Numbered from the stretch's first letter, positions 41,494 through 63,401 are shown. The stretch: DNA of 64,000 nucleotides from an uncultured Acidobacteriota bacterium (GCA_963813155.1 CAWEYG010000003.1:769866-833865), one strand, 5' to 3'. Notes: generated by a model not told the origin, from the sequence alone. A program made the numbers and translations.

Positions 41494-42069
41494 ATGAAAA
41501 AAGCTGCGACACCACCCGCCCTTCTCCTGTTGCTTTCCGTGGTCGTAACGATCTTTTCCCTATCCTGCAGCCGCGAGCCGGCGTCGACGCCCGGGGAGGC
41601 GTCCTCATCCGCCTCGACCTCCCCTCCGGCTCCCACGGGGCCGCCTGCTGTCCCCGACGGGCTGACGTCCCTGTCGGAAACGGCCTTCCGAGTCGAGTGG
41701 GGCAACCCAAAACTTTCGCCCGCGCTCCGCGCCGGTCAGTCTTCGAGCGTGACCGTTCTCGTCAAAAACACGGGCGATGAGCAGTGGCCGAGCAAGGGAT
41801 CGCTTGACCCGAGCTGGGCCGGCGCGGGCGCGGTTCGTCTGAGCTACCGTTGGCTGAAACCCTCGTCTGACCCCCTCACCTCATTCACGGACCGAGTCGA
41901 TCTTCCCAAGGCTTTGGGACCGGGAGAATCGGCCGAATTGGTCGTTCCCGTGAAGACCCCAGGGGAGCCCGGCGACTACAAACTCCAGTTCGATCTGGTT
42001 CAGGAGTCCGTGGCGTGGTTCAGCGACAAGGGAGCAGCCAAGCTCGCCGTGCCCGTCAAAATTCAGTGA
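41494..42069 (+). CDS. Secreted/lipoprotein with FDLVQExVAWF domain (family member 1)
   Basis: Signal peptide with Cys, Pro/Ser linker, then FRVEWG...VRLSYRW...GDYKLQFDLVQESVAWFSDKGAAKL. Confidence 0.6.
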   Translation: MKKAATPPALLLLLSVVVTIFSLSCSREPASTPGEASSSASTSPPAPTGPPAVPDGLTSLSETAFRVEWGNPKLSPALRAGQSSSVTVLVKNTGDEQWPSKGSLDPSWAGAGAVRLSYRWLKPSSDPLTSFTDRVDLPKALGPGESAELVVPVKTPGEPGDYKLQFDLVQESVAWFSDKGAAKLAVPVKIQ

Positions 42070-43826
42070 GGACCTGAAGGCCGCGCCGCCAGATCCGACG
42101 CCGCACCGACAACGCGGATTCCGGCCTCGTCGGGCACGAGCCGGCCGATTTCGATGTCGCGCCGCCTCCCGTACAGGCACCGCAGTCGGACGCGGAGATC
42201 GTGAACGCCTGACGCGGGCAGGACAGACAACGGCACCCGGATCCGCCAACCCGCGTGCCGAAACGCCTGGTCGCGGTAGCTCGCGGCAACGTCGGGTCGC
42301 GGAAGCCCGAGCTCCGCGGAGGCGACGGGGTGGCCGTCCAAGACGAGATCGAGCCGCTCCACGGGCACACCGGAACGGGGAGAGTCCGCCGCCCATCCGC
42401 GGATGTCGACCACCGTGCCAGTGCGGAGAATCACCGTTCGCCCGCGGAAGGCGAGACCGTTGATGACATCCACGCTTCCGATTGGCGGAATACTCGACGG
42501 CCTGTTTCGGTAGGCCGCGAGCCCGTATTCCCGGAGTACGCCCAGGGCATCGCGCACTGCCTGCGGCCTCGGGTAGAGCGAGCTGCGGATCTGCGCATCC
42601 GTGGCGGTACCGTTGAGGAGGTCAGCGACGTTCCGGTCGTTGATCTGGGAAAAACGACGAACGACCGGGAGCCAGCCCGCGGAGAGTTTCACGACCTGCA
42701 CCGTCGCGAGAGATCCGATCACGACGATTGCCACAAGCCGATGCCCGGAGCTCGTCGCCGTCCGCTGCGGCTCGCAGTCGATCGACGCGACGATCAGCAT
42801 GAACGCGGCGATTCCCAGCGGCGTCGTCGACGTGCAGTAGTGAGAAGCGAGCGCCTGATCGAGGCCCGCGCTGGCGCGCGCAAGGGCAATCAAGGCTGCC
42901 GACCCGATCGCAAGCAGCCCGACGCAGCTCCACCTCCGAAGAGAGTTTCGGTCCATGCCCCCTCGACGCCAGGCGAATGCCAGTGCCAGAACAAACGCCG
43001 CGCACACGGCGAAACCGATTTCTCCTAACGCCCGAAGCGAAGAGTGCGGCGAGAGAGCGAACGGCCGGCCGAGAAGGACGAGGAAAAAAGGAACCACTCT
43101 CGCCCAATTGACGCGGAGCGTGGCGACGCTGGCGGCGTGCTTGGCGAGAATCAGGCCGCCGACGCCCGCAAGGCTCCACACCGACAGGCGGAGACGCCGG
43201 CGCGTGGGATCCGTGGCGATCGCGACCAGCCCCACGATCCAGAGCGAGTTTGCGGCCGAAAAGGACAGCGACGCAAGGACCGCCGCGATCACCGCGGGCA
43301 CGAACCGATTCGCCCGGCCGTCTCGCCGAGTGAGAAAGAAAATCGACAGGACAGAGGCCAAAAGAGATAGGTTCTGCATCAGAGGATAGCCCGAGAAGAA
43401 GTTCTCGAATTGCGAGAGGGAGAACACGTAGGCCGACAGGGCCGCGGCGACGACGAGCAGGCGGGGACTCGTTTCTTTCGCCATCCAGATCAGCAACGCG
43501 AGGACCCCGACGCAGACGACGTAGCTGGCGACGACCTCCGCGCGGACGTTCCAGCGCGTCAGCAGTCCCAGACAGTAGAAAATGAGCTTCGGAAACACGT
43601 TGAAGTGCCCGTTGTAAGGACGGAGCAGGAACGGCAGAACCGGCTTGTGGGTGTAGTGCCGCAGCCAGAGCTCGACCTGGCTCCACTGGTCCCAGATGGG
43701 CATGTCGCTCGTGAGTGGAAAGATCAAAGAAAACTGGAGAATGGGAATTGCCGCCGCGATGCAGAACGACGCGACGTTCGCGATCGACCATGCCCGCGAG
43801 TCCCGGTCGATGGTGTCGATTTTCAA
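42063..43826 (-). CDS. Polytopic membrane protein, tandem paralog D, with ~150-aa C-terminal Ig-like extension
   Basis: Same N-terminal family motifs as A-C; extra C-terminal soluble domain resembling the C-terminus of 63456-63986. Confidence 0.65.
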   Translation of the reverse strand: MKIDTIDRDSRAWSIANVASFCIAAAIPILQFSLIFPLTSDMPIWDQWSQVELWLRHYTHKPVLPFLLRPYNGHFNVFPKLIFYCLGLLTRWNVRAEVVASYVVCVGVLALLIWMAKETSPRLLVVAAALSAYVFSLSQFENFFSGYPLMQNLSLLASVLSIFFLTRRDGRANRFVPAVIAAVLASLSFSAANSLWIVGLVAIATDPTRRRLRLSVWSLAGVGGLILAKHAASVATLRVNWARVVPFFLVLLGRPFALSPHSSLRALGEIGFAVCAAFVLALAFAWRRGGMDRNSLRRWSCVGLLAIGSAALIALARASAGLDQALASHYCTSTTPLGIAAFMLIVASIDCEPQRTATSSGHRLVAIVVIGSLATVQVVKLSAGWLPVVRRFSQINDRNVADLLNGTATDAQIRSSLYPRPQAVRDALGVLREYGLAAYRNRPSSIPPIGSVDVINGLAFRGRTVILRTGTVVDIRGWAADSPRSGVPVERLDLVLDGHPVASAELGLPRPDVAASYRDQAFRHAGWRIRVPLSVLPASGVHDLRVRLRCLYGRRRDIEIGRLVPDEAGIRVVGAASDLAARPSGPH

Positions 43827-43931
43827 GTCTCCAACGCTCGATTCCAGCCTACACGAAACCTCACCTGCAGGGCTAGCCCGGGAGGATATCGAGTTGAGCT
43901 TCGCATCGGTCGCCCGTACACTCTCGGCAAG

Positions 43932-46343
43932 GTGTACGAAAATGGCGAACTGCGCGTCTCGTTTCGGGAGGGTCTCGCGGTGGCACTGCTCTATCTTGTC
44001 GCTCTCGGGTGCGCCTATCCAAACGTTCTATTCAAGGGGAAATCGCTCGTCTACACGGACAATCGCAATCCGGCCGACGAGCGACTGATTGCGCAGAATT
44101 ATGGAGAGAAATTCGTTCCCGCTGAGGTCTGGGCCGACAAGAACTACAACCGTTATCCGAATCTGCACGATCCCGGAGCCACTTGGTGGCAATGGGAACC
44201 CGCCGCCGAGTTTCTGAGAACCGGTCTCGAGAAGAGAGAGCTTCCTTTCTGGGACCCCTACGTCGCCGGCGGAACGCCGGCGATGACGAACGTCATCTCT
44301 GCGCTTGCTTTTCCGCCGTACGTCGCCGTGGTTCTCGCCGGAAACACGGCCTTCCTTCGAAACGCCTACTACCTTTTTCTGCTGTTCGCCGCCGCTCTCT
44401 TTACCTACCTCTTCCTGCGCAAGCACGGCCTGCTGCGGGAGGCGTGCTTCCTCGGGGGCGTCGTCTTTCTCTTCTGCGGTGGCCTCATTCAGAACGCGGG
44501 ATCGTTTATCGGTCAGGCGGCGGCATGCGTTCCGTTCGTTCTCTATCTCGTTCGCCGATTCCTGGACCGCCCCGAGGCGAGACGACTCGTCGTTCTCGCG
44601 TTCGGGATGGCGCTGGTGTCGCTCGCCAGCTTTCCGCCGCTCCTGGTAGGAACGTTCGGAACCGTCGCAATCTACGCGGTTTCGATGATCCTCTCGGCCG
44701 ACCGGCCCTCGCAGCCGGCCGGCGGGCGGGCGCGACTGATCGCGTTATTTGCAGCCGCCTGCGGGCTCGCGTTCGGGCTCGTCGGGTTTTACTTCGTTCC
44801 GTTCGTGGCCCTCGTCCGGGCTACCCCCTACGTATCCGCGCTGTACAAGGGGGCAGCGTTGCTCTCGATGCCGTTCGTCACGATCTATGACCTGCTTTCC
44901 CCGGTCGCGCTGGGCGGCCGGAAAGTCTTCGCTCAGGCCCCCTTCCGAAGCCCCAGTCATTTCAGCCTCTTTTACCTCGGGGTCGCGCCGATCGCACTGG
45001 CGGCGCTCGCCGGCCCCGTACAGCCGAAAAAGGCGAAAGCCCTGTTTTGGATCTTCTTTTCGAGCACAGCTCTCCTGAGCCTCAAGCTTTTCGGGGTACA
45101 GCCTGTTCAGTCGCTCGGACGGTTACCGATTCTGAAGAACGTGCACATGGCACAATACTTCGGTATCTACCTCGACTTTTTTATCGCCGTTTTGGCCGCG
45201 ATCGGTCTCGAGCGGCTCGCCTCGGGACGGCCGGCGCGAGCGCGAGCGGCGTTCGCGTCATTGCTCGTCGCTCTGCTGCTCGGCGGCGCTCACCACGTCG
45301 CGATCGCGGGGGGACTCCGAAAATCCGGCCTCGAGAGCTTCTGGCTTCGCTCTTGGGCGTTCCTCGTCGGCACCGCCATCCTGATCCTCGCGTCGATTCT
45401 TCTCGCGTCCATCCTGTCGATAGGGCGCGCGAAGACCGTCGTCGTGGCCGCTTGCATCGCGCTTTGCATGGCCGAGGGAGCCTTCAACGCTTATTATCCT
45501 CGCCAATACACTTGGAACGTGTGGCGCCACCCCGTTCCATATGTCCAGGAGCTCCAGCGCGAAGCCGCCCACGACCGAGTGCTCGGCCTCGGGGCGTTGG
45601 AAGCGAACCTCGGGTCGGCGTACGAGGTCTTCGAGATCGATTCCCTGATGGCGTTCAATCCGGAAAGGATCTACGATTTTTACCATCGCTATTTCAGTCG
45701 CTCCAAAGAGATTTTTCTTCGGTCGACAAGACGCCTTCCGGAAGAGGGGCCGCTTGATCGCGCCGACCTGAGGTACCTCATCGTCGCCGAAGGGATTCCG
45801 AGCGCGGTCCGGGAAGCGAGCCGGCGCGGCTACGAGTCGATTTTTGCTGACGGAACCGTGCGGATTTTCCGCCGAGCGTCCTCGCCGCGGTACTACTTTA
45901 CAAGCGACTATCAGCTCGCCACGCCGGCGAGAGCGCTCGATCTGGCTGGATCGCTGCCGCCCGGCAGGGGAATCGCGATCGAGGAGCAACCGGAATTCAG
46001 TTCACAGCCCAACGCCGGCGACGATCCTGCCATCCAGGTGCTCGATTTTCATCGAAATTCGTTGACTCTCGGCCTCTTTGCTCCCCGGCCGGGGCTCGTC
46101 TATTGTGCCGAGAGCTATTTCGACGGATGGTCCGCAACTGTGAACGGTCGACCGACAAAGATTCTGCCAGCCAATTACGCCTTCCGCGCCGTCGAGGTCC
46201 CGGCGGGAACAGTTCGCGTCCACCTTTCGTACTGGCCTCCCGGTCTCATGGCAGGTCTCGCACTCACGGCGGGGAGTCTTCTCTTCACGGTAGCGCTGTC
46301 AGCGGGCTTCGTCCTTCGGCGGCGAGAAGGAGGGCCGCTGTAA
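43932..46343 (+). CDS. YfhO-family membrane protein (GT-C-like, wall polymer glycosylation)
   Basis: GTG at 43932 gives an N-terminus co-linear with the paralog at 54417; C-terminal YFDGWSATVNGRPTKILPANYAFRAVEVPAGTVRVHLSYWPPG is YfhO-typical. Confidence 0.7.
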   Translation: MYENGELRVSFREGLAVALLYLVALGCAYPNVLFKGKSLVYTDNRNPADERLIAQNYGEKFVPAEVWADKNYNRYPNLHDPGATWWQWEPAAEFLRTGLEKRELPFWDPYVAGGTPAMTNVISALAFPPYVAVVLAGNTAFLRNAYYLFLLFAAALFTYLFLRKHGLLREACFLGGVVFLFCGGLIQNAGSFIGQAAACVPFVLYLVRRFLDRPEARRLVVLAFGMALVSLASFPPLLVGTFGTVAIYAVSMILSADRPSQPAGGRARLIALFAAACGLAFGLVGFYFVPFVALVRATPYVSALYKGAALLSMPFVTIYDLLSPVALGGRKVFAQAPFRSPSHFSLFYLGVAPIALAALAGPVQPKKAKALFWIFFSSTALLSLKLFGVQPVQSLGRLPILKNVHMAQYFGIYLDFFIAVLAAIGLERLASGRPARARAAFASLLVALLLGGAHHVAIAGGLRKSGLESFWLRSWAFLVGTAILILASILLASILSIGRAKTVVVAACIALCMAEGAFNAYYPRQYTWNVWRHPVPYVQELQREAAHDRVLGLGALEANLGSAYEVFEIDSLMAFNPERIYDFYHRYFSRSKEIFLRSTRRLPEEGPLDRADLRYLIVAEGIPSAVREASRRGYESIFADGTVRIFRRASSPRYYFTSDYQLATPARALDLAGSLPPGRGIAIEEQPEFSSQPNAGDDPAIQVLDFHRNSLTLGLFAPRPGLVYCAESYFDGWSATVNGRPTKILPANYAFRAVEVPAGTVRVHLSYWPPGLMAGLALTAGSLLFTVALSAGFVLRRREGGPL

Positions 46344-47108
46344 CCCTTCTGCCACCGGGAGTGCTGCCGCCGTTCGCTGGTGCCGGTGGTAATCGCCGCG
46401 GGAGAGCAGCTTCTCAAGGAAGATGTACAAAACGATAAAGAGATAACGGCTGCCCATCTCCTTGATCTTGAGCTTCGAGACGCCGGTCGTCCGGTTGTAC
46501 CAGTTGATTGGAAGGACGGCGTACGTGTAGCCACGGACAATCGCTTTCAACGGCAGCTCGATCGTCAGGTTGAAATGCCGTGACAGAATCGGGCTCACGC
46601 CCCCGATGACCTCGCGCCGATAGCCCTTGAAAGCGTTCGTGGTGTCATTGAGATCGAGCCGGAACAGGATTTTGATGAACCAGTTCGCGAGCCGGTTCAA
46701 AGCGAGCTTGAAAACCGGATAATCCACGACCCTGCTTCCCCGCAGGAACCGGGACCCAAAAACGCACTCGAAACCTTCCTCCAGCTTTCGGGCGTACTTG
46801 ACCACGTCGGCCGGGTCATCCGAGGCGTCCGCCATGACGATGCAAACGGCGTCGCCTCGAAACGTTTCGAGCCCCCTGGTCACGGCGTGGCCGAACCCGG
46901 CGGACTTCTCGTTCGACACTCCGCGGACTTCCGGATATTCGCGAGCGAGGTCTGCGACTGTCTCGGCCGTTCGATCGGTGCTGTGATCGTTCACGACGAC
47001 TATCTCGAAAGCGATCTCTGCCGACCTCAAAGCGACGCAAAGCGCCGAAACCGTCGTGCCCAGGCTGCCTTCCTCGTTATGAGCGGGAATGACCACCGAT
47101 ATCAGCAT
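46299..47108 (-). CDS. GT2 polyprenol-phosphate glycosyltransferase with C-terminal membrane helices
   Basis: ISVVIPAHNEE...DADxxD...; ATG at 47108 overlaps the upstream epimerase stop (alternative ATG 47126). Confidence 0.75.
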   Translation of the reverse strand: MLISVVIPAHNEEGSLGTTVSALCVALRSAEIAFEIVVVNDHSTDRTAETVADLAREYPEVRGVSNEKSAGFGHAVTRGLETFRGDAVCIVMADASDDPADVVKYARKLEEGFECVFGSRFLRGSRVVDYPVFKLALNRLANWFIKILFRLDLNDTTNAFKGYRREVIGGVSPILSRHFNLTIELPLKAIVRGYTYAVLPINWYNRTTGVSKLKIKEMGSRYLFIVLYIFLEKLLSRGDYHRHQRTAAALPVAEGLQRPSFSPPKDEAR

Positions 47109-48181
47109 TACGCGCCCGCTGTCCACCTCTCCACGTTCTTCTCGTAGATGTCACGGAGCAGGCTCTCGAGATCGTATCTCTGCTTCCAGTTCGGGAAATG
47201 CACCTGGAATTTTCCGAGGTCGCTGATGTACCAAATGTGATCGCCCAGCCGATTCGCCTCGGAGTACGTCCACTGCAGGGGTCGGTTCGCGATCGATTCA
47301 CAGAGCTCGATCGCTTCGAGCATGGAGCAATTGCTGAAGCGGCCGCCGCCCATGTTGTAGACCTCGCCGGGCCGCGGAGCCCGGAAGTACTCATGGAACG
47401 CCGCAACCAGATCTGCACTGTGGATGTTGTCGCGCACCTGCTTTCCTTTGTATCCGTAGACCGTGTAGGGCTGCCCGGTGCAGACGCACTTCATGAGAAA
47501 AGCCAGAAAGCCATGGAGCGCCGTCCCGGAATGATTCGGCCCCGTAAGACAGCCTCCCCGAAAGCACACCGTCGGCAGGCCGAAATACCGCCCGTACTCT
47601 TGAACGAGCACGTCCGCGGCGACCTTCGACGCTCCGAACACGGAATGGGTCGACGCATCGATGCTCATCGACTCGTCGATCCCGTTCGAGAATTCGTGGC
47701 CCCGCTCGATCTCCCAACGGGTCGACTCTTCGACGAGGGGAAGCAAGTTCGGGCGGTCGCCGTAGACTTTGTTCGTCGAGGTGAAGATGAAGACGGCGCC
47801 GGGACAGAAGCGGCGACACGCTTCGAGTAGGTTGAGAGTCCCGACTGCATTGACGGAAAAATCCGTTTTCGGTTCGCGGGCCGCCCAGTCATGAGAGGGC
47901 TGCGCGGCCGTATGAACGACGAGGCGGACGGCCGAGCCGAGACCCTGGAACAGCCGCTCGATCGACGCCTCGTCGCGAATGTCGATATCCCGGTGGCTGT
48001 ACCGCGCCGGGAACCGGGATCTCAGAAGATCGCGGTTCCAGGCTGTCGAAGCCTCGTCGCCGAAGAAGCGCCGCCGCATGTCGTTGTCGATGCCGACGAC
48101 ATCGAAACCGAGCTCGGCGAAGGAGCTCGCCGTCTCTGAACCCACGAGACCGCAACTGCCCGTCACAACGGCGAGGGACAT
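47108..48181 (-). CDS. NAD-dependent epimerase/dehydratase (CDP/UDP-sugar epimerase-like SDR)
   Basis: TGSCGLVGS Rossmann motif, YxxxK; 357 aa. Confidence 0.85.
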
Positions 48182-48190
48182 TTCAGCCTT

Positions 48191-49267
48191 TCAAGCCCAC
48201 AGTCCGCGAAGCTCGTGCTCCGAAGCACGGATCCATTCGAGCGTGTCGTGAAGAATGTCGCGAGGCGATCTCTTCGGGCGCCAGCCGGTCGCCTCGCGAA
48301 TGCGGTCGGTGTCGGAGACGTACAACTTCACGTCCGCCGGACGATTCGACGGTTCCGACCCGATCGATACTGTATTTCCCGTCAGCTCGCGGCAAAGGGC
48401 CGTGGCTTCGCGGAGCGACAGGCTGCACTCCAGCCCTCCCCCGACGTTGAAAGTCAGCCCCCGGAAGCGTTCCAGTTCCCCGAGCTGGAGACTCAGAAGC
48501 TCGGCGAGATCGTCGATGTGCAAGAGGTCGCGGACCTGTTTCCCCTCTCCACCCCAGCCATGGTACGCGATGGCTTTGCCGAAGTAGTGGCTCGCCACCC
48601 AGAGAGCGAACACGCCCTGCTCGACTTTCCCGAACTGATAGGGGCCGGCGATGACGCCGCAGCGATTGATGATCGCGCGGAGGGAATACATGTCCGCATA
48701 TTCGCCGATCAAGAGTTCCGAAGCGAGCTTCGTAGCCCCGTAAAGAGATCGCGCTCCACCCAGGGGGAAATCTTCACTGATCCCTTTCGGTGATATGCCG
48801 ACGAGTCTCTGGGTTTTCGAAATCTTCAGCCGCGTTTCCGTTTCCTCGGTCTCGATCTCGTTGAGCAGCCGCGTCGGATAAACTCGGCTCGTAGAGAGAA
48901 AGACGAAGGCGGCTTCCCGCTTGCGAGCAAACTCGAGACAGTTCACGGTACCCACCAGATTCGTCCGGAGCACATACTCTGGCGACTCTCCGTGGCCCGC
49001 GAGAACGGACGGCTCCGCTGAGCACTCGAGAACGAGATCGATCTTCGGGAGAGCGGTTTCGAGATCTTCGGGACTTCGAATGTCCGCGTGCAGGAACTCT
49101 ACCCCGCCCGTCCGGAGTCGCGCGAGATTCGTCTCCGACCCCCGGCGCCGAAGATTGTCCGCCGCGATCACGCGAACCTCCGGATGTGCCTGCTTGAGCC
49201 CGACAGCGAGGTTCGAACCGACGAAGCCGGCCCCGCCCGTGACCAGGACTTTTCGAAAGTCGAACAT
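48191..49267 (-). CDS. NAD-dependent epimerase/dehydratase (second SDR)
   Basis: VTGGAGFVGSNL, YGATK; 358 aa. Confidence 0.85.
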   Translation of the reverse strand: MFDFRKVLVTGGAGFVGSNLAVGLKQAHPEVRVIAADNLRRRGSETNLARLRTGGVEFLHADIRSPEDLETALPKIDLVLECSAEPSVLAGHGESPEYVLRTNLVGTVNCLEFARKREAAFVFLSTSRVYPTRLLNEIETEETETRLKISKTQRLVGISPKGISEDFPLGGARSLYGATKLASELLIGEYADMYSLRAIINRCGVIAGPYQFGKVEQGVFALWVASHYFGKAIAYHGWGGEGKQVRDLLHIDDLAELLSLQLGELERFRGLTFNVGGGLECSLSLREATALCRELTGNTVSIGSEPSNRPADVKLYVSDTDRIREATGWRPKRSPRDILHDTLEWIRASEHELRGLWA

Positions 49268-49339
49268 CTTCTATCAGCCGGAGAGTTCCGAACGAGAGAC
49301 TATCAGAGGAAAGAGGCGGCCGGGAGTTAGAATGTCACC

Positions 49340-49810
49340 GTGTCCCGGAGCCTGATCAGTATTTCTCTCGTTGCGTTCGTCCTTTCGTGCGCGCGGTCGC
49401 CCGAGGCAAATTTCCCTCCAGCGCTCTCGGCGCCTTCCGCGGGCCCTTCGCCGGATCTCTACTCGGTCACCTGGCTCGACCATGAGTTTCCCGCCGAGGT
49501 CAAACATGGAACGCAGGTATTGGCGGCCGTGACGTTCAAGAATTCCAGCCCCCGCGTCTGGAACCACTTCGTGAGGTTCAATTACACTTGGAGGCTCGAC
49601 GGTGCTGCCCCCGGCCCCTATGAGCCGAACCGGACGTTCTTCGGGAGGCCGGTCGCTCCCGGAGAAGCGGTTTCTTTGGACCATGTCCTAGTCGACGTCC
49701 CCGCAAAGGCCGGGCTCTACACGCTCGTCTTCGTACTGGTCAACGAGTCGGTCGCCTGGTTTCCCGATCGCGGCGCCAAAGCTCTTTCCATCCCGGTTCG
49801 CGTGAGCTAA
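49340..49810 (+). CDS. Lipoprotein with FDLVQExVAWF-type domain (family member 2, divergent)
   Basis: Lipobox-like FVLSCA; ...LVFVLVNESVAWFPDRGAKALSIPVRVS*. Confidence 0.55.
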   Translation: MSRSLISISLVAFVLSCARSPEANFPPALSAPSAGPSPDLYSVTWLDHEFPAEVKHGTQVLAAVTFKNSSPRVWNHFVRFNYTWRLDGAAPGPYEPNRTFFGRPVAPGEAVSLDHVLVDVPAKAGLYTLVFVLVNESVAWFPDRGAKALSIPVRVS

Positions 49811-49835
49811 TCGCGCATTGGGGCGACGCGAAGCG

Positions 49836-51548: not shown

Positions 51549-52021
51549 TTCTTTCTCTCGCGTTGCTCGCGCTGGCGACCGCCTGCGAACACGATACCGA
51601 GCAGGGCGCGGAGCCGGCTCCCCTCCCGGACTCGGCGTTCAAGGTCGAATGGGGCGCGGCGACGATTCCGCCTTCCCTGAAACCCGGGGAAAAGGTCGTC
51701 GTTTCGGTCACGTTCAAAAACGCCAGCACGCAGACCTGGCCGGACTCGAAGACGGCTGGCGGCAAACCGCCGGGCTCGGGCGCCGTGCGCCTTTCGTACC
51801 GCTGGTGGCCGCCGAGCTCGCCTCTGGCGACTCCGTACACGGTTCGCGCCGATCTGACGACCCCCCTCAAACCGGGGGCTTCCGCCACGCTTCCCATCGC
51901 GGTGATCGCACCGAACGCGCCCGGGGATTACCGGCTCCAGTTCGATCTCGTGGACGAGCTTGTCGCGTGGTTCGAGGAAAAAGGCGCGTCCAAGCTGATC
52001 GAGCCCGTCGCCGTTCGCTGA
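51515..52021 (+). CDS. Lipoprotein with FDLVQExVAWF domain (family member 3)
   Basis: Signal peptide ...LALATAC; FKVEWG...VRLSYRW...GDYRLQFDLVDELVAWFEEKGASKL. Confidence 0.6.
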   Translation: MHFRGARGSLAILSLALLALATACEHDTEQGAEPAPLPDSAFKVEWGAATIPPSLKPGEKVVVSVTFKNASTQTWPDSKTAGGKPPGSGAVRLSYRWWPPSSPLATPYTVRADLTTPLKPGASATLPIAVIAPNAPGDYRLQFDLVDELVAWFEEKGASKLIEPVAVR

Positions 52022-55259: not shown

Positions 55260-55288
55260 TTCTTCCGAGTGTCCGCAGAGCTCGCACG

Positions 55289-56344
55289 TCAAGGCCCGGC
55301 CTCGGCGTGGCGACCCGTCAGCTGATCTGACGAGTCGGCGAACCCCAACCGCCGCGAGATGAGATACAGAGGCCGTTGCTTGGCTTCCTCGTAGATTCGG
55401 CCGACGTAGACGCCAATGATGCCTGTCAGACCCAGCTGCGCCCCTCCGATGAGCATCACGATAACGATCAAGGATGTCCAACCAGGGACCACATCCCCGA
55501 CGACGAGACGCGAGTAGAGGATATAGAGGAGATAGCCGAAGCCGGCCAGCACCAGCGCCAGACCGAGGTAGATCGCTACATAGAGTGGCGTCGCCGAGAA
55601 GGAAACCAGCCCGTCCATCGCAAGACGGAGCATCTTTCGCGCGCCGTACTTGGATTCTCCCGAGCGGCGCGACGGAGCCTCGTAAATGACTGCCGTTGAG
55701 CGAAATCCGACCCAGCTGGCGAGCCCTCGCAAGAAACGGGTCCGTTCGCGGATCCTTCCAAATGCTTCGACGACTTTGCGGTCGAGCAGCCGAAAGTCCG
55801 CCGCGTTGCTGGAAAGGTCGAGGCCCGAGAGTGCGCGGAAAAGGCGGTAGAAGAACGATGAGAACAGGCGTTTCAGCGGCCCCGCGTCCTCCATCTCCTC
55901 GCGGATCGTGTAGACAACCTCGAACCCCTCGTTCCAACGCCGGACAAGCTCCCGAATGACCCTGGGGGGGTGCTGCAGGTCGGCATCCATCATGATGACC
56001 GCGTCGCCCGTCGCGCAATCCATCCCCGCAGTAAGAGCGTTCTGGTGGCCGAAGTTTCGGGAGAGGGAAATCAGCTTCACCCGAGGATCCTGCCGGTGAA
56101 GCATCTCGACCGCCGAAGCAGACCCGTCGGTGCTCCCATCATCGACGAACAGGATCTCGAAATCGGCGGCAAGGGGCGAGACTTCTTCCACGAGCAGCCC
56201 ATAAAGAATGGGAACGTTTTCCTCCTCGTTGAAGACCGGAACGACGAGCGAGAGCGTGCGGCTCTGGCTCACGGCACTGCGGGTTGTGTGTTTTTTGTCA
56301 TCGTGCACGAGCTCGATCGGATGGATTGTAGCAGGCCTCTCCAT
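55289..56344 (-). CDS. GT2 undecaprenyl-phosphate aminosugar/hexose transferase (ArnC/GtrB-like) with C-terminal TM helices
   Basis: LSLVVPVFNEE, DDGSTD, MDADLQHPP motifs; 351 aa. Confidence 0.8.
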   Translation of the reverse strand: MERPATIHPIELVHDDKKHTTRSAVSQSRTLSLVVPVFNEEENVPILYGLLVEEVSPLAADFEILFVDDGSTDGSASAVEMLHRQDPRVKLISLSRNFGHQNALTAGMDCATGDAVIMMDADLQHPPRVIRELVRRWNEGFEVVYTIREEMEDAGPLKRLFSSFFYRLFRALSGLDLSSNAADFRLLDRKVVEAFGRIRERTRFLRGLASWVGFRSTAVIYEAPSRRSGESKYGARKMLRLAMDGLVSFSATPLYVAIYLGLALVLAGFGYLLYILYSRLVVGDVVPGWTSLIVIVMLIGGAQLGLTGIIGVYVGRIYEEAKQRPLYLISRRLGFADSSDQLTGRHAEAGP

Positions 56345-56369
56345 GAACGTCCGGCGCCCGCGCGCTTCT

Positions 56370-58019
56370 TCACGGACCCGACGGTCCGCCGTGGAGAATC
56401 CGCGGGGCGCCGAGGGTCACTCCCGAGACTCGGTCAGGAGACACGGGCAGAAAGCCCGTCGCCTCTCCGTAGAATCGGCGACGCACCGACCGCTCCCCGA
56501 AAGGCACAAGGACGAGGGAATAAAGAAGGAGCACGGCGAGAAGTCCCGTCGAGATCGCCGTCCGAAGAGCGCCACATCGAAGAGCCTTCGGCGCATAGAA
56601 GGCTCCAAGCCAGAGCACGGGCAGCAGATACGGGTACCAGTGTCTGCCGACGGTATCCATGCCGTCGAGGGTGACGACATAAAGCACCAGATAGAACGCG
56701 GTGTATAAAACGAGAGCCGACACAAGAGGATTCGAGACCGTCAGCGATACTACCCGCCGGCGACGGCCCGCACGGAAGACCCGGCGAAGACGAGCAAAGA
56801 GCCGGGCGGCAGAGATCAAGGAAAGGGCAAGGACAACCCAGCACCCGATCCTCAAAGCCTGCCAGAAAAACGCGTCGAACCGCGGAGTGCCAACGACGAC
56901 CGGGGTGTCCATCCAGCCGTAGATTCCCGCCGTCCCTCCACCGCCCCAGAACGTCTGAAAGCACGTTCCGCCTCCATAGATCTGGTGCAGCGCGGAAGAA
57001 ACCGCCGCGCCGACATATCGCACCGGCCCGGCGGACCTCCAAAGCTGAGCGGTCTGCCGCGGCTCCATGTCCGCCGTGAGATTCGTGAAACCGTTCCAAT
57101 CGACCCAGAGTTGAACGCCGGCGAGAACAACGCACGGGAGAAGCAAACTGCCGAGCCGAAAGCCCCATCGGCGTTCACCCTTCGGCAGAAGCGCAACTTC
57201 GACCGCGATCATGACCGCCACGGCGCCGAAGGTGGCTGCGAAAAAGTGATACTTCGTGACGAGCAGCGCTCCGAGGGCCAGGCCGGTCCAAATCCACGGT
57301 AATCGGCGGGTCGAACTGCGAATTTCACGCCGCGCTACTAACGCGCCCCAGATCGAAGCCAGCGTGAGGGCTGCGCTCAGGTTTTCGGGATGTGCGCTGG
57401 ACGAAACGGCGATCGTCAGCGGAAAGAATGCGACGGCTGCGGTCAACATCAACGAGCGACCTTTCGAGACGCGCAGCTCTCGAAGTATCCCGAACACGGC
57501 CAAAACCCTGAAGCCGAGCAACAAGACCGAGCTCATCCGCGCTGCAAAGAAGAGCGTCACCAGGCGCGAGTCGAACGTGTTGACGAGGCGCAGCCACGCC
57601 GCGAGCGCCGCGTACCATCCAAACGGATACTCAGCCAGGATGTAGGGGTTTCTCGCCGCGGAGGCTCTGAGACCGGAAGCTTCCCGGTTCAGCTTCGCGA
57701 AGAACGCGGAAGACCCATATCCGGGAGGAATTCGCGACGCGGGGTGGAGATGAACGCCATCGAAATTCGTCCGGGTAGACAGGAGCCATAGGTCGGGGTG
57801 AGTCACGGGAATCAACGACGCGTCGGGTCTCCTTTCGACTACGGGCTTCTCCGCGACCTGGAGGAGTCGACCGGAGGCAGCAACACACCACGCATAGTCA
57901 AGATGGATGTCTTCATCGGGGACCTCGAGCATCGGGACGAGGAAAGCCCAGTAAGCCGAAACCGCCATCGCGGCGACGGCGATCAGCCCGAGAAGAATAC
58001 GCGCCCGCCTTTGACTCAT
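56370..58019 (-). CDS. Polytopic membrane protein (DUF2142/GT-C-like glycosyltransferase candidate)
   Basis: 549 aa, more than 10 TM helices; ATG 58019 overlaps the upstream lipoprotein stop (ATGA). Confidence 0.5.
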   Translation of the reverse strand: MSQRRARILLGLIAVAAMAVSAYWAFLVPMLEVPDEDIHLDYAWCVAASGRLLQVAEKPVVERRPDASLIPVTHPDLWLLSTRTNFDGVHLHPASRIPPGYGSSAFFAKLNREASGLRASAARNPYILAEYPFGWYAALAAWLRLVNTFDSRLVTLFFAARMSSVLLLGFRVLAVFGILRELRVSKGRSLMLTAAVAFFPLTIAVSSSAHPENLSAALTLASIWGALVARREIRSSTRRLPWIWTGLALGALLVTKYHFFAATFGAVAVMIAVEVALLPKGERRWGFRLGSLLLPCVVLAGVQLWVDWNGFTNLTADMEPRQTAQLWRSAGPVRYVGAAVSSALHQIYGGGTCFQTFWGGGGTAGIYGWMDTPVVVGTPRFDAFFWQALRIGCWVVLALSLISAARLFARLRRVFRAGRRRRVVSLTVSNPLVSALVLYTAFYLVLYVVTLDGMDTVGRHWYPYLLPVLWLGAFYAPKALRCGALRTAISTGLLAVLLLYSLVLVPFGERSVRRRFYGEATGFLPVSPDRVSGVTLGAPRILHGGPSGP

Positions 58020-58576
58020 GGCCCCGCCACGACAATCGGAAGGATCAGCCGGTCAGCGCCTTTCGAGGCGAACCACGCGACGTCCTCCTGAACGAGCTCG
58101 AACTCGATCTCATATTTTCCCGCAATCGCCGGAAGATCCACCTGGACCGGGAGAATCACGTCCTTGCCGGGCCGGACGGGCCAGGGCAGGTCGGAACGCG
58201 CGCGCCGGTCCTGGATGACGCGCCCGTCGCGTGGATCGAGACACCTCCAGGCCAGCCGTACGGCATACATACCCGTCGGATGGCTCGGCATCGCAGCCTG
58301 GGCGTCGGGCCAGGTCGCCGAGCCGCGGTTTCGCAACTTCACCGCGAAGGTTGCCCTGGCGCCGGCCACCAGCTCCGAAACGGGCTCCACGGAAATCCAT
58401 TGGACGCGGAACGCGTCGTCGGGAAGCGGCGGAGCGTGCTCCTCCGGGGAAGCTGTACGGCGCGATTTCGAGCAACCCGCCAGCGCAAGACAAAAGGCGA
58501 CCAGAGTCATCTTTCGTAAGCCGCTCGCCAACGTTCCCCGCGCGTTGCCCCGCTGATCAGCCTTCCGGGCAGCCAC
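58016..58576 (-). CDS. Lipoprotein with FDLVQExVAWF domain (family member 4)
   Basis: Classic lipobox LALAGCS; FRVQWI...VRLAWRC...GKYEIEFELVQEDVAWFASKGADRL. Confidence 0.65.
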   Translation of the reverse strand: MAARKADQRGNARGTLASGLRKMTLVAFCLALAGCSKSRRTASPEEHAPPLPDDAFRVQWISVEPVSELVAGARATFAVKLRNRGSATWPDAQAAMPSHPTGMYAVRLAWRCLDPRDGRVIQDRRARSDLPWPVRPGKDVILPVQVDLPAIAGKYEIEFELVQEDVAWFASKGADRLILPIVVAGP

Positions 58577-59923
58577 TCAGCCCTTCACAGGGTTCCCGTC
58601 AACGGCGGAACCAGCTCTCGACTTTCCCCGTGGTCGCCATCGCAGAAGATCCGCGACCACACAGCCACAGGTGCCCCCTCCGAACAGCACGAAGGGCATT
58701 TGCCATACGATGAAATCCATGTGCGTGTGTATGAACGAATGAGCTTTGAACACCACGAACCACGAGACCGGGCCAAGAAAAGCGACCCACGTGGCCAATA
58801 TCAAGGCCATTTCCTTTCGCCGAATTGCCTCCTCCCTCGCGCTCCGGCTGCGGACATAAAGCGCAAGCGACATCGCAATGACGACGGCAATCAGATACAC
58901 ATACCTCATGTTCAGGAAATAGGTCCCGGTCAGGTATCGCGCGATCACAGGTGCCGTACCCGCTCTCAAACTGTCGCCAAATTCAGCCGGGAGCCGCGTC
59001 GGGTCCCCCCGTGTTCTCTTCGCAAATGAATAGATTATGTGGGACACACCCGCCGCAACACGCCCCCGAACGGACGCTATTTGAAAACAGAGAAGAACCA
59101 TGCTGGCAACGACAGCGCTACACGCGCCAGCGATCGACACGGAGAGAATTTGTATCCATCGCCTCACCGGCCACCGTTCAACAGCGCCATAAAACACGCC
59201 TGGAACGAGAACCATGACGATCGTCGTCGTGATGTACTCGTATCCGTTGACCACACATTTCACGAACACACCCAGCGCGACGACGCCGAATAACGCCGCG
59301 AGGTTGACAGCGCGACGACGAGCCGGAGGCCGCAAATAGTAGAGAACGGCACCCAGCGGAACGTAAAATGCCCAGAGCGACCACCACAGATTGCGACCGA
59401 ACACGACGAGCCATTGGGAACAGATGATCGACAGGAGAACACCCACGGCAACCACCGACCTGAATTCAAAATAAAACCACAGAACAATCGCGCTCAGGAC
59501 GAGAGCCGAGATCGAGGCCGTGAGGCCATGGAACACGCGCAACTTTGTTTCCGGCGAGGCGGCCAGCACTCTGTCGAGAATTCCAAATAACATTCCCTGG
59601 CCGCCAATTTGCGAATCGTACGTTGTGAAAGCGCGAAATCGGTAATGGTTCGCGTAGGCTGAATATTGATCGGAAAACGGGTTGTCGGCGTAGTCGACCG
59701 GAACCGTCGTGAGGCTGCCCAGGCCCGGCAGCCCGCCTGCCGCAAGGATGCCATCCTGGCGGCTCTTGACGAGTCTGCCGATGACGTAGCTTTCACTGTC
59801 GCTTTGAAAGTTGGCGAACCAATCCTCGTTGGCGACACCAAAAGAGTTGGTGAAGAAGCTCAAGAACAGGGACGCTACCGAAACGATGACGAGGACCGAC
59901 CCCGCGGCGGCCGACCGGCTCAT
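58577..59923 (-). CDS. Polytopic membrane protein (start at internal ATG, MSRSAAAG...)
   Basis: About 10 TM helices; the track ORF extends to 60145 with an Arg-rich, non-protein-like N-terminus. Confidence 0.45.
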   Translation of the reverse strand: MSRSAAAGSVLVIVSVASLFLSFFTNSFGVANEDWFANFQSDSESYVIGRLVKSRQDGILAAGGLPGLGSLTTVPVDYADNPFSDQYSAYANHYRFRAFTTYDSQIGGQGMLFGILDRVLAASPETKLRVFHGLTASISALVLSAIVLWFYFEFRSVVAVGVLLSIICSQWLVVFGRNLWWSLWAFYVPLGAVLYYLRPPARRRAVNLAALFGVVALGVFVKCVVNGYEYITTTIVMVLVPGVFYGAVERWPVRRWIQILSVSIAGACSAVVASMVLLCFQIASVRGRVAAGVSHIIYSFAKRTRGDPTRLPAEFGDSLRAGTAPVIARYLTGTYFLNMRYVYLIAVVIAMSLALYVRSRSAREEAIRRKEMALILATWVAFLGPVSWFVVFKAHSFIHTHMDFIVWQMPFVLFGGGTCGCVVADLLRWRPRGKSRAGSAVDGNPVKG

Positions 59924-61623
59924 CGGGCCGATTCCATCAGCACCCGTTCGGCCATCCGGGCGGCAGGGGCGGTGAAAATCAACGCCCGAGGTCGGTAGTC
60001 GGAGCCCTGAGAGGCAGACCCCGACGCGATCTCCGGCGGAAGTCGCTCGGCGAGGAAATAGCCGTTTCGGGCCGCGTCGTACCGGAGTATCACCGCGGCC
60101 GGCAAGGCCACGTCGGCGAGAATTTGGTCTTTCGAATCGCGGCAAGCAATCTCGTCATGCTCGGCCGAACAATGCTGATCCCCGTACGGACCTATGAGAA
60201 GCGTTCTCTCCCACATCGACCGGTCGTCATAGAGCAGGCTGGCCCACGCCTGCGCAAGATAATCCGCCTGCGTGGCGAGGTAATAGGGCGGGCGTTCCGG
60301 GATCAGGAGGACGAGCGAGGCCGACGGCGCGAGTCGGGGCGCCGCCTCGACGATCGACCTCAGCTCCATGCGATGCCGCCGCCAGTACGCCAGAAAATAG
60401 TCCTGCCGGTCGAGCCCACCATCGATTCCGAGCCCGACGAACACGAGCGGCAGCGCGACGCCCAGCCAGCGAAATGAGAAGCGCAGGCGAAGCACAATCG
60501 ATGCCGAAAGGGCAATCGCGAGCGAAGCCCAGTAGCGCGAAAGAATTTGCGACCGGAAAAAGTACTGGGAAAATTGCAGGAGCCCGTGAGTCGAGTTGCA
60601 CGCGAGCGCCATCAGGAGGAACGCCGCGAGGAATGTGAAGTCCCTCTTCCGCGACTCCTCCTCCCGCTCCAGGTCCCGGCGGCGGACCAGGAACCAGGCC
60701 GTTCCGCCAAGAAACGCGAAAGCCCCGACGACGGGAGCCCAGAGCCGGATCCAGCCCGGCACGACGGAGGGTGGCGGTGGGAACCAGTTCCGCCGGGCGC
60801 GCCCCCACGTCCACGGCGCGAAGTTGTGAAAATATGCTGCCGCGATCCGATGTCCCCGGGCCATGAAGCTGATCGGCTCGATCGCGGTTGCGGCATAGCT
60901 GTGAGGGTCGAGCAAGAATCTCCCGAAAACCACGAGGTAGGGCGCGAACACGCACGCCATGGCGAGCGATGCGGCCTTCACGCGCCGGGAGAAACGCCCC
61001 TCGACGAGCCAGAGCAAGGCCGGAGTCAGCAGGATCGGTGCAAACGCAACGTCTGTATTTCCGAGGCTGACCGCGAGCGCCGCGATGCTCAACGCGATCC
61101 ATCGCCGCCTTCCCGACTTCAACCAGGCCAGAAGGAGCGCGAGCGTGACGAAGTAAAACAGGGCCGCCAGGTCGTAGTGAAGCGCCTCGAGACTGTTCGC
61201 CTGATAGTCGCCTGTCGCGCAAATCGTCAGACACCCTCCCGCGAATGCGAGCCAGCGATTCCCCGGAAAGATCTGCGCGAGGACGAGGGCGGCGAAGACA
61301 CCGCCGAGGAACCACGTGAGGCCGTAAAAGATCTGCAGAGTCGCGACGGGCGACGGCGTGAAGAGAGCGAGCGCGAAGGGCGCGCCGGCAAAGATTCGCG
61401 TTGGCTGGGCGATCGGAAGAAGGAACCGAAAAATCCCGTGGCCCCAACTGTTCACATATCCCAAAATAAAGGTCTCATCCTGGAACATCCCCCGATCGAG
61501 CGCGAATATTCCCCAGACGAGATACGTCAGAAAGGCGAAGACGCCGAGAGCCATGCACACCGCAGGCGCATTCCACGCCCTCTCGGGCGAAAGATTCTCG
61601 AGTGTCTCCGGGTGGGCCGACAT
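59920..61623 (-). CDS. Polytopic membrane protein, GT-C-like candidate
   Basis: 567 aa with 12 or more hydrophobic helices followed by a ~170-aa soluble C-terminal region. Confidence 0.5.
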   Translation of the reverse strand: MSAHPETLENLSPERAWNAPAVCMALGVFAFLTYLVWGIFALDRGMFQDETFILGYVNSWGHGIFRFLLPIAQPTRIFAGAPFALALFTPSPVATLQIFYGLTWFLGGVFAALVLAQIFPGNRWLAFAGGCLTICATGDYQANSLEALHYDLAALFYFVTLALLLAWLKSGRRRWIALSIAALAVSLGNTDVAFAPILLTPALLWLVEGRFSRRVKAASLAMACVFAPYLVVFGRFLLDPHSYAATAIEPISFMARGHRIAAAYFHNFAPWTWGRARRNWFPPPPSVVPGWIRLWAPVVGAFAFLGGTAWFLVRRRDLEREEESRKRDFTFLAAFLLMALACNSTHGLLQFSQYFFRSQILSRYWASLAIALSASIVLRLRFSFRWLGVALPLVFVGLGIDGGLDRQDYFLAYWRRHRMELRSIVEAAPRLAPSASLVLLIPERPPYYLATQADYLAQAWASLLYDDRSMWERTLLIGPYGDQHCSAEHDEIACRDSKDQILADVALPAAVILRYDAARNGYFLAERLPPEIASGSASQGSDYRPRALIFTAPAARMAERVLMESAR

Positions 61624-61684
61624 TGCGATTGTGAACTCCCGAAAGCGACGGAATCGTACCGCAATTCCTGCGGCCCGGATCCCC

Positions 61685-63401
61685 TCATTTCACGCGAACC
61701 CGGATGACGAGCGGGTTCGCCCCCTGATCCGAAAACCACGACACAAACTCCTGGACGAGATCGAAGTGAAGCTCGAAGTCACCGGCGAGATCCGGCGGCG
61801 TGATGTCGATCGGAAGAGTCGTCCATTGCCCCGGCAGGAGGGGTTCGCTCAGGTCCGCGCGCGGCGAATCGTCGGGAAGGGGTTCGGAGGAGTTGACCTT
61901 GAACCATCGACATCCCAACCGCACGGCGCGGACCGCATCGGGGATCCCCGATATCGAGGGCCGGGGACCGAGCCAGGAGACCGGGCTCGCGTTTTGGAAG
62001 CGAACCGTCGCCTCGAAGGGCTTGCGCTCGATCACCGGCGGTACATGGACCTCTCCCCACCGGACCCTGTAGCCGTCGGGCGGGAGAGCATTCGGCCGAG
62101 CCGTGAATCCCGCGACGTTCGAGCGCGCAAGGAGATCCTCCCGCATCTCCAGATGATGCCAGTCCCATGCATGGGCCTCCAGCGGGAGTCCCATCCTCGC
62201 TTCCCAGTTCGACGAACCGTAGGCGAGACCTCCTTCGATCTGGATGAGGATCGACAGAAGCGCCAATACGCCGGTCACGATCAGGTGTGGCCGTCTCATC
62301 CGCCTCAATGCCAGAATCGAGGTGAGCGCGAGCACGGGCAGTATCTCGATCAGGTAGCGCGGCCCGAAACTCCAGCCGCCGGCCCAGCGGGCAAACGAAC
62401 AGTGGACGAGCGCGTAGGCGATCGCCGCCGCAGAAAAGGTCGCCAGAAGAGGCCGGGCCTTCGCCTGGCGGAAGGCAATCCCCATTCCCGCCAGGCCCAC
62501 GACCGCCACCGGCGTGTAGAAGAGGAGTCCGCGATTCGGGCTGAAAAACAGGCCGAGAATGCCGAGCGGAGCGTTGCGCAGAGCGATGTGCGTGGCGCCG
62601 TGAACGGTTCCCCCCATGGGATTGTCGAAGTAGTAGAGGTTGTAGAAGAGAAACGGCGCCGCGGCGGCGATCGCGCCCGCTCCGTAGGCCAGCGGCGCCC
62701 TCCATCCCCGTCTGCGCCGTATCCCTTTCAGAAGCAAATAGGCGAACCCGGCGGCCGCGAAAATCGCCGCCGCCGGCCGGATGCCGTACAGAAAATCCGA
62801 GAAAGACGCCGGCCAAAGCTCCTGAGCGAACCGTCCCGCCCGGCCGAGAGAGGCAGAACAATCCGAGGAGCAGGAACAGCACGTCCGGGCCGTGCTGCCA
62901 GAGCTCCTGGCTCGCCACCGCCCACATCGAGGTGCCCAGACCGAATACGAGAGCGACGCCGAGTGCGCGGTACGGGCCCGCCCAGGGAACGAGCATCCGG
63001 AAGAGCACCAGTACCGCCGCGGCGCAGATGATCCCGGCGCTCCAGATCTCGGCCGTGGCGGCCACATCGAAGAGATTCCGGGGGGAAGTTCGTTTCTGCA
63101 GCGAAAGAACGGCGTAGATGGGGAGGTCGACGGGAAGCGCGGCGATCGCCGCGCCGATGGGATAGTGGGACATCAGATGCCCGCGCCGGTTCTCGAGATA
63201 GCCGACCTCCCGCGTGTCGCGCGAGAATTCTGCCGAGAACGAGTCCAACGTCACTCGATGGTCACGAAGAATCGCGAAAGGAAGGACCCGCGTACCGAGC
63301 GTGTCCCAGCCTTCCGCAACACTCGACACGTCGGCCGTCGAGACGTAGGCAGCGAGGCAAACGAAGAAGATTGCCACGCCCGAAAGAAAGGGTCGAGTCA
63401 C
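61685..63401 (-). CDS. Membrane GT-C-like protein fused to a C-terminal FDLVQExVAWF domain; apparent 1-nt insertion near 62800
   Basis: N-terminal ~200 codons (MTRPFLSGVAIFFVCLAAYV...) in the frame of ORF 61779-63401; remainder in the frame of ORF 61685-63067, ending ...GDFELHFDLVQEFVSWFSDQGANPLVIRVRVK*. Confidence 0.5.

Follow-up and report, generated by a model that had tools for sequence, protein, structure and literature searches.

We analyzed a 64,000-nucleotide (nt) stretch of DNA from an uncultured Acidobacteriota bacterium (GCA_963813155.1, CAWEYG010000003.1:769866-833865; here called the window), in which a domain of about 130 amino acids (aa) occurs five times among genes for surface glycan synthesis. 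This repeat represents, in its bacterial form, the FW immunoglobulin (Ig)-like domain of NBR1 and ILRUN (Pfam PF16158, N_BRCA1_IG), a seven-stranded β-sandwich whose family is very large and extracytoplasmic. We consider it likely that the FW domain is functionally coupled to GT-C-type membrane glycosyltransferases, a coupling that an earlier note on the window had proposed and that is supported by a conserved fusion, the fold of the fused partner, independent fusions with other enzymes, recurrent gene pairs, and enrichment beside polytopic membrane genes. The best explanation of the data as a whole, to which we assign a probability of roughly 55%, is that FW is a non-catalytic periplasmic partner of GT-C enzymes that binds or positions the acceptor. 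The specific acceptor-binding role, drawn by analogy, is the more tentative part of this reading, and we place it somewhat below even odds.

A profile of the five copies, searched against the six-frame translation of the whole window, gave exactly five matches (E values, 1e-46 to 1e-59), at the positions where the earlier note had placed them; there was no sixth copy in this translation, the next-best match having an E value of 0.2. Four copies are stand-alone genes and the fifth is part of a larger one.

41494-42069, plus strand: FW lipoprotein 1, 191 aa, domain at 41671-42066; profile E value, 1e-58; lipobox FSLSC
49340-49810, plus strand: FW lipoprotein 2, 156 aa; lipobox FVLSC
51515-52021, plus strand: FW lipoprotein 3, 168 aa, identical to public protein P0001 and modeled with AlphaFold
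58016-58576, minus strand: FW lipoprotein 4, 186 aa, inside a minus-strand operon
61685-63401, minus strand: GT-C glycosyltransferase (PMT_2-like) whose C-terminal domain is FW (61688-62086); the gene is frameshifted here
62790-62793, minus strand: TTTT run with one T too many, which shifts the GT-C-FW gene out of frame

The copies are paralogs with 34 to 44% pairwise identity and 24 invariant columns, and their alignment contains the shared motifs F(R/K)VEWG, VRLSYRW, and FDLVQExVAWF that had been noted before. Copy 2 is the most divergent and lacks a loop of ∼13 aa after the second tryptophan. A recent tandem duplication was considered and rejected because the copies are only 34 to 44% identical and each has closer orthologs elsewhere. 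Each stand-alone protein begins with a hydrophobic segment that ends in a lipobox-like cysteine (FSLSC, FVLSC, LATAC, and LAGC for the four copies), so that, as first read, these are by their sequences signal-peptide lipoproteins with predicted lipidation. Among 22 stand-alone aligned sequences (4 from the window and 18 homologs), 18 have the lipobox cysteine, and 3 of the 4 that lack it are N-terminally truncated. The tether between cysteine and domain spans 10 to 38 aa (most, 10 to 27 aa) and has a pooled composition of 23% Pro, 17% Ala, 12% Ser, and 5% Thr; that of lipoprotein 1 is 34 aa long, Ser/Thr/Pro-rich, and 35% Ser/Thr. The alignment shows that the folded domain is conserved and the tether is not.

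The earlier note did not recognize the domain as a named family, a view that did not hold: the domain belongs to PF16158, whose bacterial members have been noted since 2012 (PMC3357945). PF16158 was the top Pfam match for all four stand-alone copies, with 28.5 bits for copy 1 (cutoff, 28) and 17.7 to 21.1 bits, below the cutoff, for copies 2 to 4; the fused copy gave no PF16158 match when scanned within the whole protein. At the family level, 16 of 18 members matched PF16158 at an E value of ≤0.01. The family profile, searched against 1.84 billion representative proteins, retrieved 13,305 cluster representatives at an E value of ≤1e-3 and 4,792 at ≤1e-10, and the highest-scoring proteins are long and contain as many as 14 copies in tandem. 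PF16158 was hit by 58 of 64 sampled top matches (E values down to 1e-72), and the consensus repeat of these matches shares the pattern ...YxW...R..LP...PG....AP...G.Y.L..D.V.EGV.WF..G. Structure prediction of the lipoprotein alone, which the earlier note had asked for, yielded a confident AlphaFold model of the domain (predicted local distance difference test [pLDDT] score, 94.7) with the FW fold of NBR1: its best Foldseek match was the human NBR1 FW domain (4OLE; E value, 3e-6), and it has the Ig-like β-sandwich fold of the solved NBR1 and ILRUN FW domains. A search of the domain profile against Protein Data Bank (PDB) sequences gave nothing significant (best E value, 1.5), and the NBR1 link therefore rests on Pfam and fold comparison. 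In our own alignment taken alone, W10 and W39 are invariant, W61 is present in at least 90% of sequences, and W116 is present in most. Bacterial FW proteins have been described as having "strikingly diverse" architectures with function unassigned (PMC3357945, PMC9233695), and the domain is often found at their C terminus (PMC3357945). Companions in the bacterial proteins that we sampled include CARDB, PD40, subtilases, SpoIID, amidases, carbohydrate-binding and glycoside-hydrolase-like domains, and proteases, often with FW in tandem repeats.

The fifth copy had been described as the C-terminal domain of a polytopic protein. The fusion itself stands and is kept in three intact orthologs (566 to 576 aa, 56% identity, 99% coverage), all of which end in an FW domain, but a single open reading frame (ORF) is not present here. 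The gene occupies two frames, its N-terminal third running from 63401 to ∼62795 and the rest from ∼62797 to 61685, and the public annotation of the same sequence contains only a 350-aa fragment (61685-62737). When the TTTT run at 62790-62793 is shortened by one T, the gene encodes a 571-aa protein whose corrected junction, AGVFLGFLYGIRP, aligns exactly with AGVFLGFLFGIRP of the intact orthologs. The extra T is either a homopolymer sequencing error or the mark of a recent pseudogene; a programmed frameshift at 62790 was rejected because the orthologs are read in a single frame and the site consists of nothing but a run of T's. The junction between the transmembrane (TM) region and the FW domain is located far downstream of the frameshift, and the uncorrected downstream frame still carries several TM helices and the FW domain. 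Because the TM-to-domain junction is in one uninterrupted frame, the fusion is real. The fused partner has a GT-C membrane fold and is PMT_2-like. The acidic residue of the first extracytoplasmic loop, D33 in the motif GWDT/GxDT, directly follows TM1 and is invariant in six homologs. Its sugar donor is putatively polyprenyl-phosphate linked, as suggested by the window context, namely, genes for a GT2 with C-terminal TM segments and for a GtrA flippase.

FW domains are fused to GT-C-type proteins of several families in other genomes. We compared 13 genomic loci (mostly from Thermoanaerobaculia metagenome-assembled genomes [MAGs], Acidobacteriota), 36 metagenome loci, and two contigs obtained by exact protein look-up; loci are given here as L numbers and homologous proteins as P numbers. 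For P0001, an exact look-up gave no record. PMT_2-like proteins with one C-terminal FW domain occur in the window, in P0025 to P0028, and in L009, L012, and L037, and one in L014 has two. L017 encodes a C-terminal FW domain on a relative of the polytopic MP440 proteins described below, and other GT-C-like proteins with an FW domain are found in L006 (3598-6060), L014 (8378-10393), and L044. Five YfhO homologs of 978 to 1,049 aa (P0234, P0240, P0243, P0245, and P0249) have a C-terminal FW domain (E values, 1e-40 to 1e-45) and are 43 to 45% identical to the window YfhO over >90% of its length. In these proteins the usual last YfhO TM segment is followed by a short basic loop, one additional TM segment, and then the FW domain, which the extra TM segment therefore places back in the periplasm. 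From its sequence, this extra segment resembles a signal peptide left over from a downstream lipoprotein gene that was formerly separate. One YfhO-FW gene is a single 1,000-aa ORF (L052, 8001-11003) on a 51.8-kb forest-soil contig, within a cluster of GT2, epimerase, and methyltransferase genes. Several independent fusions that all keep the domain in its compartment are difficult to account for unless the partnership is functional and probably also physical.

Stand-alone FW genes recur beside membrane-protein genes as well. The expectation that the stand-alone copies adjoin polytopic membrane proteins holds for copies 1, 3, and 4 but not for copy 2, which lies between an epimerase and a single-TM sulfatase. 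The membrane proteins of the window that enter the comparison are as follows.

51928-54417, minus strand: YfhO-family GT-C protein (YfhO_2), 829 aa, candidate partner of lipoprotein 3; PF09586, 49 bits
43980-46343, plus strand: second YfhO-family protein, 787 aa in the public annotation; PF09586, 49 bits
56370-58019, minus strand: DUF2142-like polytopic protein; PF09913 E value, 5.7e-6, 25.8 bits
58577-59923, minus strand: MP522, polytopic, directly upstream of lipoprotein 4; TM region with no Pfam/NCBIfam match; ATGA overlap with MP567
59920-61623, minus strand: MP567, polytopic; homologs flank FW genes in L001 and L002
37341-38660, 38657-40018, 40071-∼41435, and 42063-43826, minus strand: four MP440 paralogs, polytopic proteins of ∼440 aa that flank lipoprotein 1

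Lipoprotein 1 has MP440 paralogs on both sides, on the opposite strand. Lipoprotein 3 adjoins YfhO_2, with which it is convergent, the 3′ ends overlapping by 94 nt (51928-52021), and copy 4 lies between a 9-TM protein upstream and the DUF2142-like protein. Copies 1 to 3 are opposite in strand to their membrane-protein neighbors, and only copy 4 shares an operon with them; there it follows MP522 with a 0-nt gap and is translationally coupled to the downstream DUF2142-like gene by an ATGA overlap (58019-58016). The order on the minus strand is GT-C-FW (63401-61685), MP567 (61623-59920), MP522 (59923-58577), FW4 (58576-58016), DUF2142-like (58019-56370), GT2, methyltransferase, and YfhO (54417-51928).

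In the other loci, an FW gene precedes a YfhO gene on the same strand in L003, L004, L011, L026/27, L033/34, and L038 (with a 3-nt gap in L038), and convergent FW/YfhO pairs are present in the window and in L006. An FW gene precedes a DUF2142-like gene in the window, L035, and L049; it adjoins MP440 in the window, L001, L004, and L016; and it is divergent from a 9-TM, weakly PMT-like protein in L007, L008, L010, L030, and L031. Proximity was counted for copies with an E value of ≤1e-30 and at least 1.5 kb of flank, with random segments of the same loci, at a distance of at least 4 kb, as controls. Twenty-six of 43 FW copies were fused to, or lay within 500 nt of, a region with at least six TM segments (controls, 18%), and 34 of 43 lay within 1.5 kb of such a region (controls, 29%), an approximately three-fold enrichment beside polytopic membrane genes relative to same-locus control positions, obtained with a crude hydropathy TM predictor and on loci that are not phylogenetically independent.

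The membrane neighbors differ in how firmly they can be assigned. Both YfhO proteins score well above the PF09586 cutoff of 28.5 bits, with only the C-terminal ∼50 residues aligned, and their close homologs all carry PF09586 and are named YfhO family protein. The protein at 56370-58019 aligns over most of the PF09913 model; because its score is below the cutoff of 30.1 bits, we call it DUF2142-like only. Neither YfhO_2 nor the DUF2142-like protein has relatives among PDB sequences. The MP440 paralogs, which are 50 to 74% identical to the first of them, include three in tandem and a fourth beyond the plus-strand FW1 gene; no Pfam or NCBIfam family matched them. In a comparison of profiles only, MP440 aligned with the PMT_2-like GT-C profile (hhalign probability, 83.5%; E value, 8e-6; 109 columns), and the MP440 proteins are possibly distantly related GT-C enzymes. 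MP522 and MP567 had no family in the Pfam or NCBIfam scans, and hhalign found no relation between the MP567 family and the GT-C profile; the GT-C label was not applied to MP567 or MP522. Overall, NCBIfam contributed next to nothing to the assignment of the membrane proteins. L001 contains three MP567 homologs, beside FW and MP440 genes. A second soluble domain, marked by a "GW...(L)PRPDVA" motif and without a Pfam match, forms a stand-alone ORF (63456-63986, minus strand) and the C-terminal ∼150 aa of the MP440 paralog at 42063-43826 (minus strand; BLASTP E value, 2e-5); it is also found in L005 (9154-10503).

Several observations weigh against FW as a dedicated partner of GT-C enzymes. No GT-C family was found among the 64 sampled top family-profile matches, and because the companions are diverse and include no GT-C protein in that sample, the FW family as a whole is a generic module; the GT-C link is therefore specific to a subfamily. 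The earlier note had regarded a match to a well-characterized family of unrelated function, without GT-C co-occurrence elsewhere, as fatal to its proposal: the domain does match a known generic family, but the co-occurrence with GT-C genes recurs in other genomes. Some bacterial FW domains are apparently cytoplasmic, as in a Zn-ribbon-FW-methyltransferase protein of L015 and in XRE-FW regulators (PMC3357945). The only characterized FW functions are protein-protein contacts (PMC9233695), and a classical aromatic sugar-binding platform is not evident because the four conserved FW tryptophans are reported to be buried (PMC3357945). Within the window, three of the four stand-alone genes are opposite in strand to their neighbors, and copy 2 is without a polytopic neighbor. 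A neighbor-joining tree of the domains, labeled by partner type, did not sort cleanly by partner, and the YfhO-fused domains were only marginally closest to copy 3; for these reasons we do not claim partner-specific coevolution. To these points must be added the limits of the proximity counts given above.

Other FW proteins in the compared loci illustrate the breadth of the family. In L015 (9176-10990) and L051 (Gemmataceae), one ORF without TM segments combines a Zn ribbon, an FW domain (E value, 1e-8), and a PF13489-type methyltransferase; methyltransferases of the same type with the same CxxC ribbon are encoded by two window genes (54462-∼55295 and 36421-∼37300), which suggests that a cytoplasmic FW domain is tied to the same kind of pathway. 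A Chloroflexota MAG (L013, 8240-11530) provides an example of FW use outside a GT-C context: a 1,097-aa stop-to-stop ORF without predicted TM segments has four tandem FW domains (E values, 1e-14 to 1e-23), and its ends, judged by eye, are glycoside-hydrolase-like at the N terminus and discoidin (F5/8 type C)-like in two C-terminal repeats.

Could the stand-alone FW lipoproteins instead be substrates, that is, surface glycoproteins that receive O-linked glycans on their tethers from the YfhO/PMT-like GT-C enzymes encoded with them? There is precedent in the streptococcal Pgf system, whose adhesin substrates are encoded in the same cluster, and in YfhO-type enzymes that add sugars to disordered, Ser/Thr-rich stretches of lipoproteins and membrane proteins (PMC12041528). 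The block of GT2, two epimerases, and YfhO (43980-49267) next to lipoprotein 2 has an arrangement similar to that of pgf. The enzyme fused to FW in the window is PMT_2-like, and the Ser/Thr content of the copy 1 tether makes a substrate role plausible for that copy. The pooled tethers, however, are Pro/Ala-rich with 17% Ser plus Thr and are mostly short, the conserved part is the folded domain rather than the tether, and FW occupies the C terminus in no fewer than four different GT-C-type families, YfhO among them, which suits an enzyme module more than a substrate. We regard this explanation as unlikely. We are slightly more skeptical of the possibility that FW is a common periplasmic Ig-like spacer that clusters here through local duplication in a large, plastic surface-glycan island. 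The very large and promiscuous family, often in tandem with unrelated enzymes, would suit a spacer, as would the confinement of all five copies to one island dense in membrane genes and a control frequency in flanking DNA that already reaches 18%. Yet the paralogs are old, with closer orthologs of each elsewhere; many contigs repeat these pairings in differing layouts; independent fusions involve several GT-C families; and the YfhO fusions keep an extra TM segment whose only evident effect is to return FW to the periplasm.

A role in handling the lipid-linked donor seems very unlikely. Here FW would act as an ML/NPC2-like β-sandwich that binds polyprenyl-phosphate-sugar (or polyprenyl phosphate after its release) and exchanges it with the GT-C active site; partnership with many GT-C families would follow if they had the lipid carrier in common, and copy 4 has a weak ML-domain match (E value, 0.31). 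The sequence family is nevertheless FW rather than ML, the NPC2 similarity is of a general β-sandwich kind, and known GT-C enzymes such as ArnT, PglB, and PMT bind lipid donors within the membrane, with no soluble carrier. Scarcely credible is the idea that the window fusion is an assembly or annotation artifact or a dead gene, in which case an argument from gene fusion would fail. In its favor are the frameshift and the fragmentary public annotation of the GT-C-FW gene, together with the contig name contig_165390_np1212 of a related genome, which we guess, from the name alone, to be a nanopore-polishing label, so that homopolymer errors would be plausible. The frameshift is, however, remote from the uninterrupted TM-to-domain junction, and an assembly artifact, which the earlier note had counted as a danger to its proposal, is excluded for the architecture by the intact orthologs and the further loci that share it. 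A bolder variant of the partner reading would make the FW lipoproteins obligate, exchangeable specificity subunits of GT-C enzymes, each paralog delivering a different surface acceptor, in what would be a two-piece transferase system that is sometimes fused; recognition of components of glycan pathways would then be the ancestral role of FW, reused later by eukaryotic NBR1, the fungal NBR1 FW domain binding an α-mannosidase. We think this improbable.

The FW genes lie in a surface-glycan gene island that spans from ∼20 kb to the end of the window. It contains GT2 genes (one with two C-terminal TM segments), sugar epimerases/dehydratases, methyltransferases, a GtrA flippase, and a GDP-mannose dehydratase, and it holds parts of a polyprenyl-phosphate-sugar-dependent periplasmic glycosylation pathway as in the Gtr and CsbB/GtcA/YfhO systems (PMC5836110, PMC8035078).

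21638-22153, minus strand: GtrA-type flippase; PF04138 E value, 3e-20
22066-22857, minus strand: GT2; PF00535 E value, 1e-28
46299-47126, minus strand: GT2, within the block 46299-49267
47108-48181 and 48191-49267, minus strand: two NAD-dependent sugar epimerases/dehydratases
49836-51548, minus strand: sulfatase-family protein with one TM anchor, between lipoproteins 2 and 3; PF00884 E value, 7e-37
55289-56344, minus strand: GT2 glycosyltransferase with two C-terminal TM segments, of the GtrB/CsbB-like polyprenyl-phosphate-sugar synthase type; PF00535 E value, 7e-31

The block of GT2 and two epimerases (46299-49267) is syntenic in L003 and L004. The region 20641-28556 encodes the GtrA flippase, GT2, GDP-mannose 4,6-dehydratase, a further epimerase, and an FG-GAP repeat protein. 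The G+C content of the 64-kb window is 60 to 68%, with a dip to ∼0.60 at 26 to 32 kb against 0.64 to 0.68 on both sides. Sulfatase genes recur near FW genes in other loci, and in L007, L008, L010, L030, L031, and L014 a sulfotransferase (PF13469) and a sulfatase accompany the FW lipoprotein, which suggests that sulfation or phospho-transfer onto the same glycan may belong to the FW/GT-C system.

We propose that the FW domain was recruited in a Thermoanaerobaculia-like lineage as a non-catalytic periplasmic partner of GT-C-fold glycosyltransferases. In this model, GT2 synthases would load a sugar onto a lipid carrier in the cytoplasm, the GtrA flippase would act as the next part of the pathway, and the GT-C-type transferases (two YfhO, one DUF2142-like, one PMT_2-like, and four MP440) would transfer the sugar to an acceptor external to the inner membrane. 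For FW there would be two routes to the periplasm, either in trans, lipid-anchored on its Pro/Ala-rich tether of 10 to 38 aa and encoded beside a GT-C gene, or in cis, as the C-terminal domain of the enzyme itself. It would dock on the periplasmic face of its cognate enzyme and bind or position the acceptor, which may be a surface glycan or a protein, and each paralog may serve a different enzyme. We infer the physical interaction and the acceptor binding by analogy with the soluble acceptor-binding domains of GT-C enzymes and with LpqW/MptB.

Although the evidence base is comparative genomics in uncultured soil bacteria and the mechanism is a proposal, the partnership would give a first functional context to bacterial FW domains, recognized since 2012 without an assigned function, and a handle on orphan GT-C enzymes. 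Even for the eukaryotic FW domain, until then described as enigmatic, a role in protein binding was demonstrated only in 2022. A separate periplasmic recognition subunit may work with some YfhO, PMT-like, and DUF2142-like transferases, which would help to predict the glycosylation targets of these largely orphan enzymes. The comparison also points to the unannotated membrane-protein families MP440, MP522, and MP567 as likely components of surface-glycan modification in Acidobacteriota, a soil phylum that is dominant but poorly studied. Neither the FW family nor the GT-C families are new, and accessory domains on GT-C enzymes are a known idea; we found no FW-GT-C partnership, as a separate lipoprotein or as recurrent fusions, in the searchable literature, and it appears not to have been described before.

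Among known systems, the FW domains of NBR1 (PDB 4OLE) and ILRUN (PDB 6VHI; IPR032350) share the sequence family and the Ig-like β-sandwich of the window domain and are non-catalytic recognition modules, the role proposed for it here. Characterized members are cytosolic eukaryotic proteins that bind proteins such as Ams1 and MAP1B (PMC9233695, PMC3357945), whereas the window domains are exported and are lipid-anchored or fused to membrane glycosyltransferases. Most window copies also fall below the Pfam cutoff for PF16158.

Soluble acceptor-binding domains are established in other GT-C enzymes, including the C-terminal carbohydrate-binding modules of EmbC/AftD, the MIR domain of PMT1/2, and the periplasmic domain of PglB/AglB. 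All place a β-rich extracytoplasmic domain on a GT-C core, the same design as that of the PMT_2-FW and YfhO-FW fusions. FW differs from them in fold family, in also being a separate lipoprotein gene, and in being common to at least four GT-C subfamilies. For a stand-alone lipoprotein, LpqW is needed for full activity of the GT-C mannosyltransferase MptB in Corynebacterineae (PMC7261415). This pair is the closest precedent for a stand-alone lipoprotein accessory of a GT-C enzyme, although its lineage and pathway differ from those of the window system. LpqW has a substrate-binding-protein fold, not FW, and no fusions of it are known.

The GtrA/GtrB/GtrC and CsbB/GtcA/YfhO lipoteichoic acid systems (PMC5836110, PMC8035078) have a GT2 synthase, a GtrA-type flippase, and YfhO/GT-C genes, all of which are present in the window too. 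Those systems have no fourth, FW-type component, and the window organism is a diderm member of the Acidobacteriota. The streptococcal Pgf cluster (PMC12041528) brings together GT-A/GT2, an epimerase, two YfhO proteins, and small exported proteins, as the window does. In Pgf the co-encoded exported proteins are substrates, whereas in the window system the exported domain is also fused to the enzymes.

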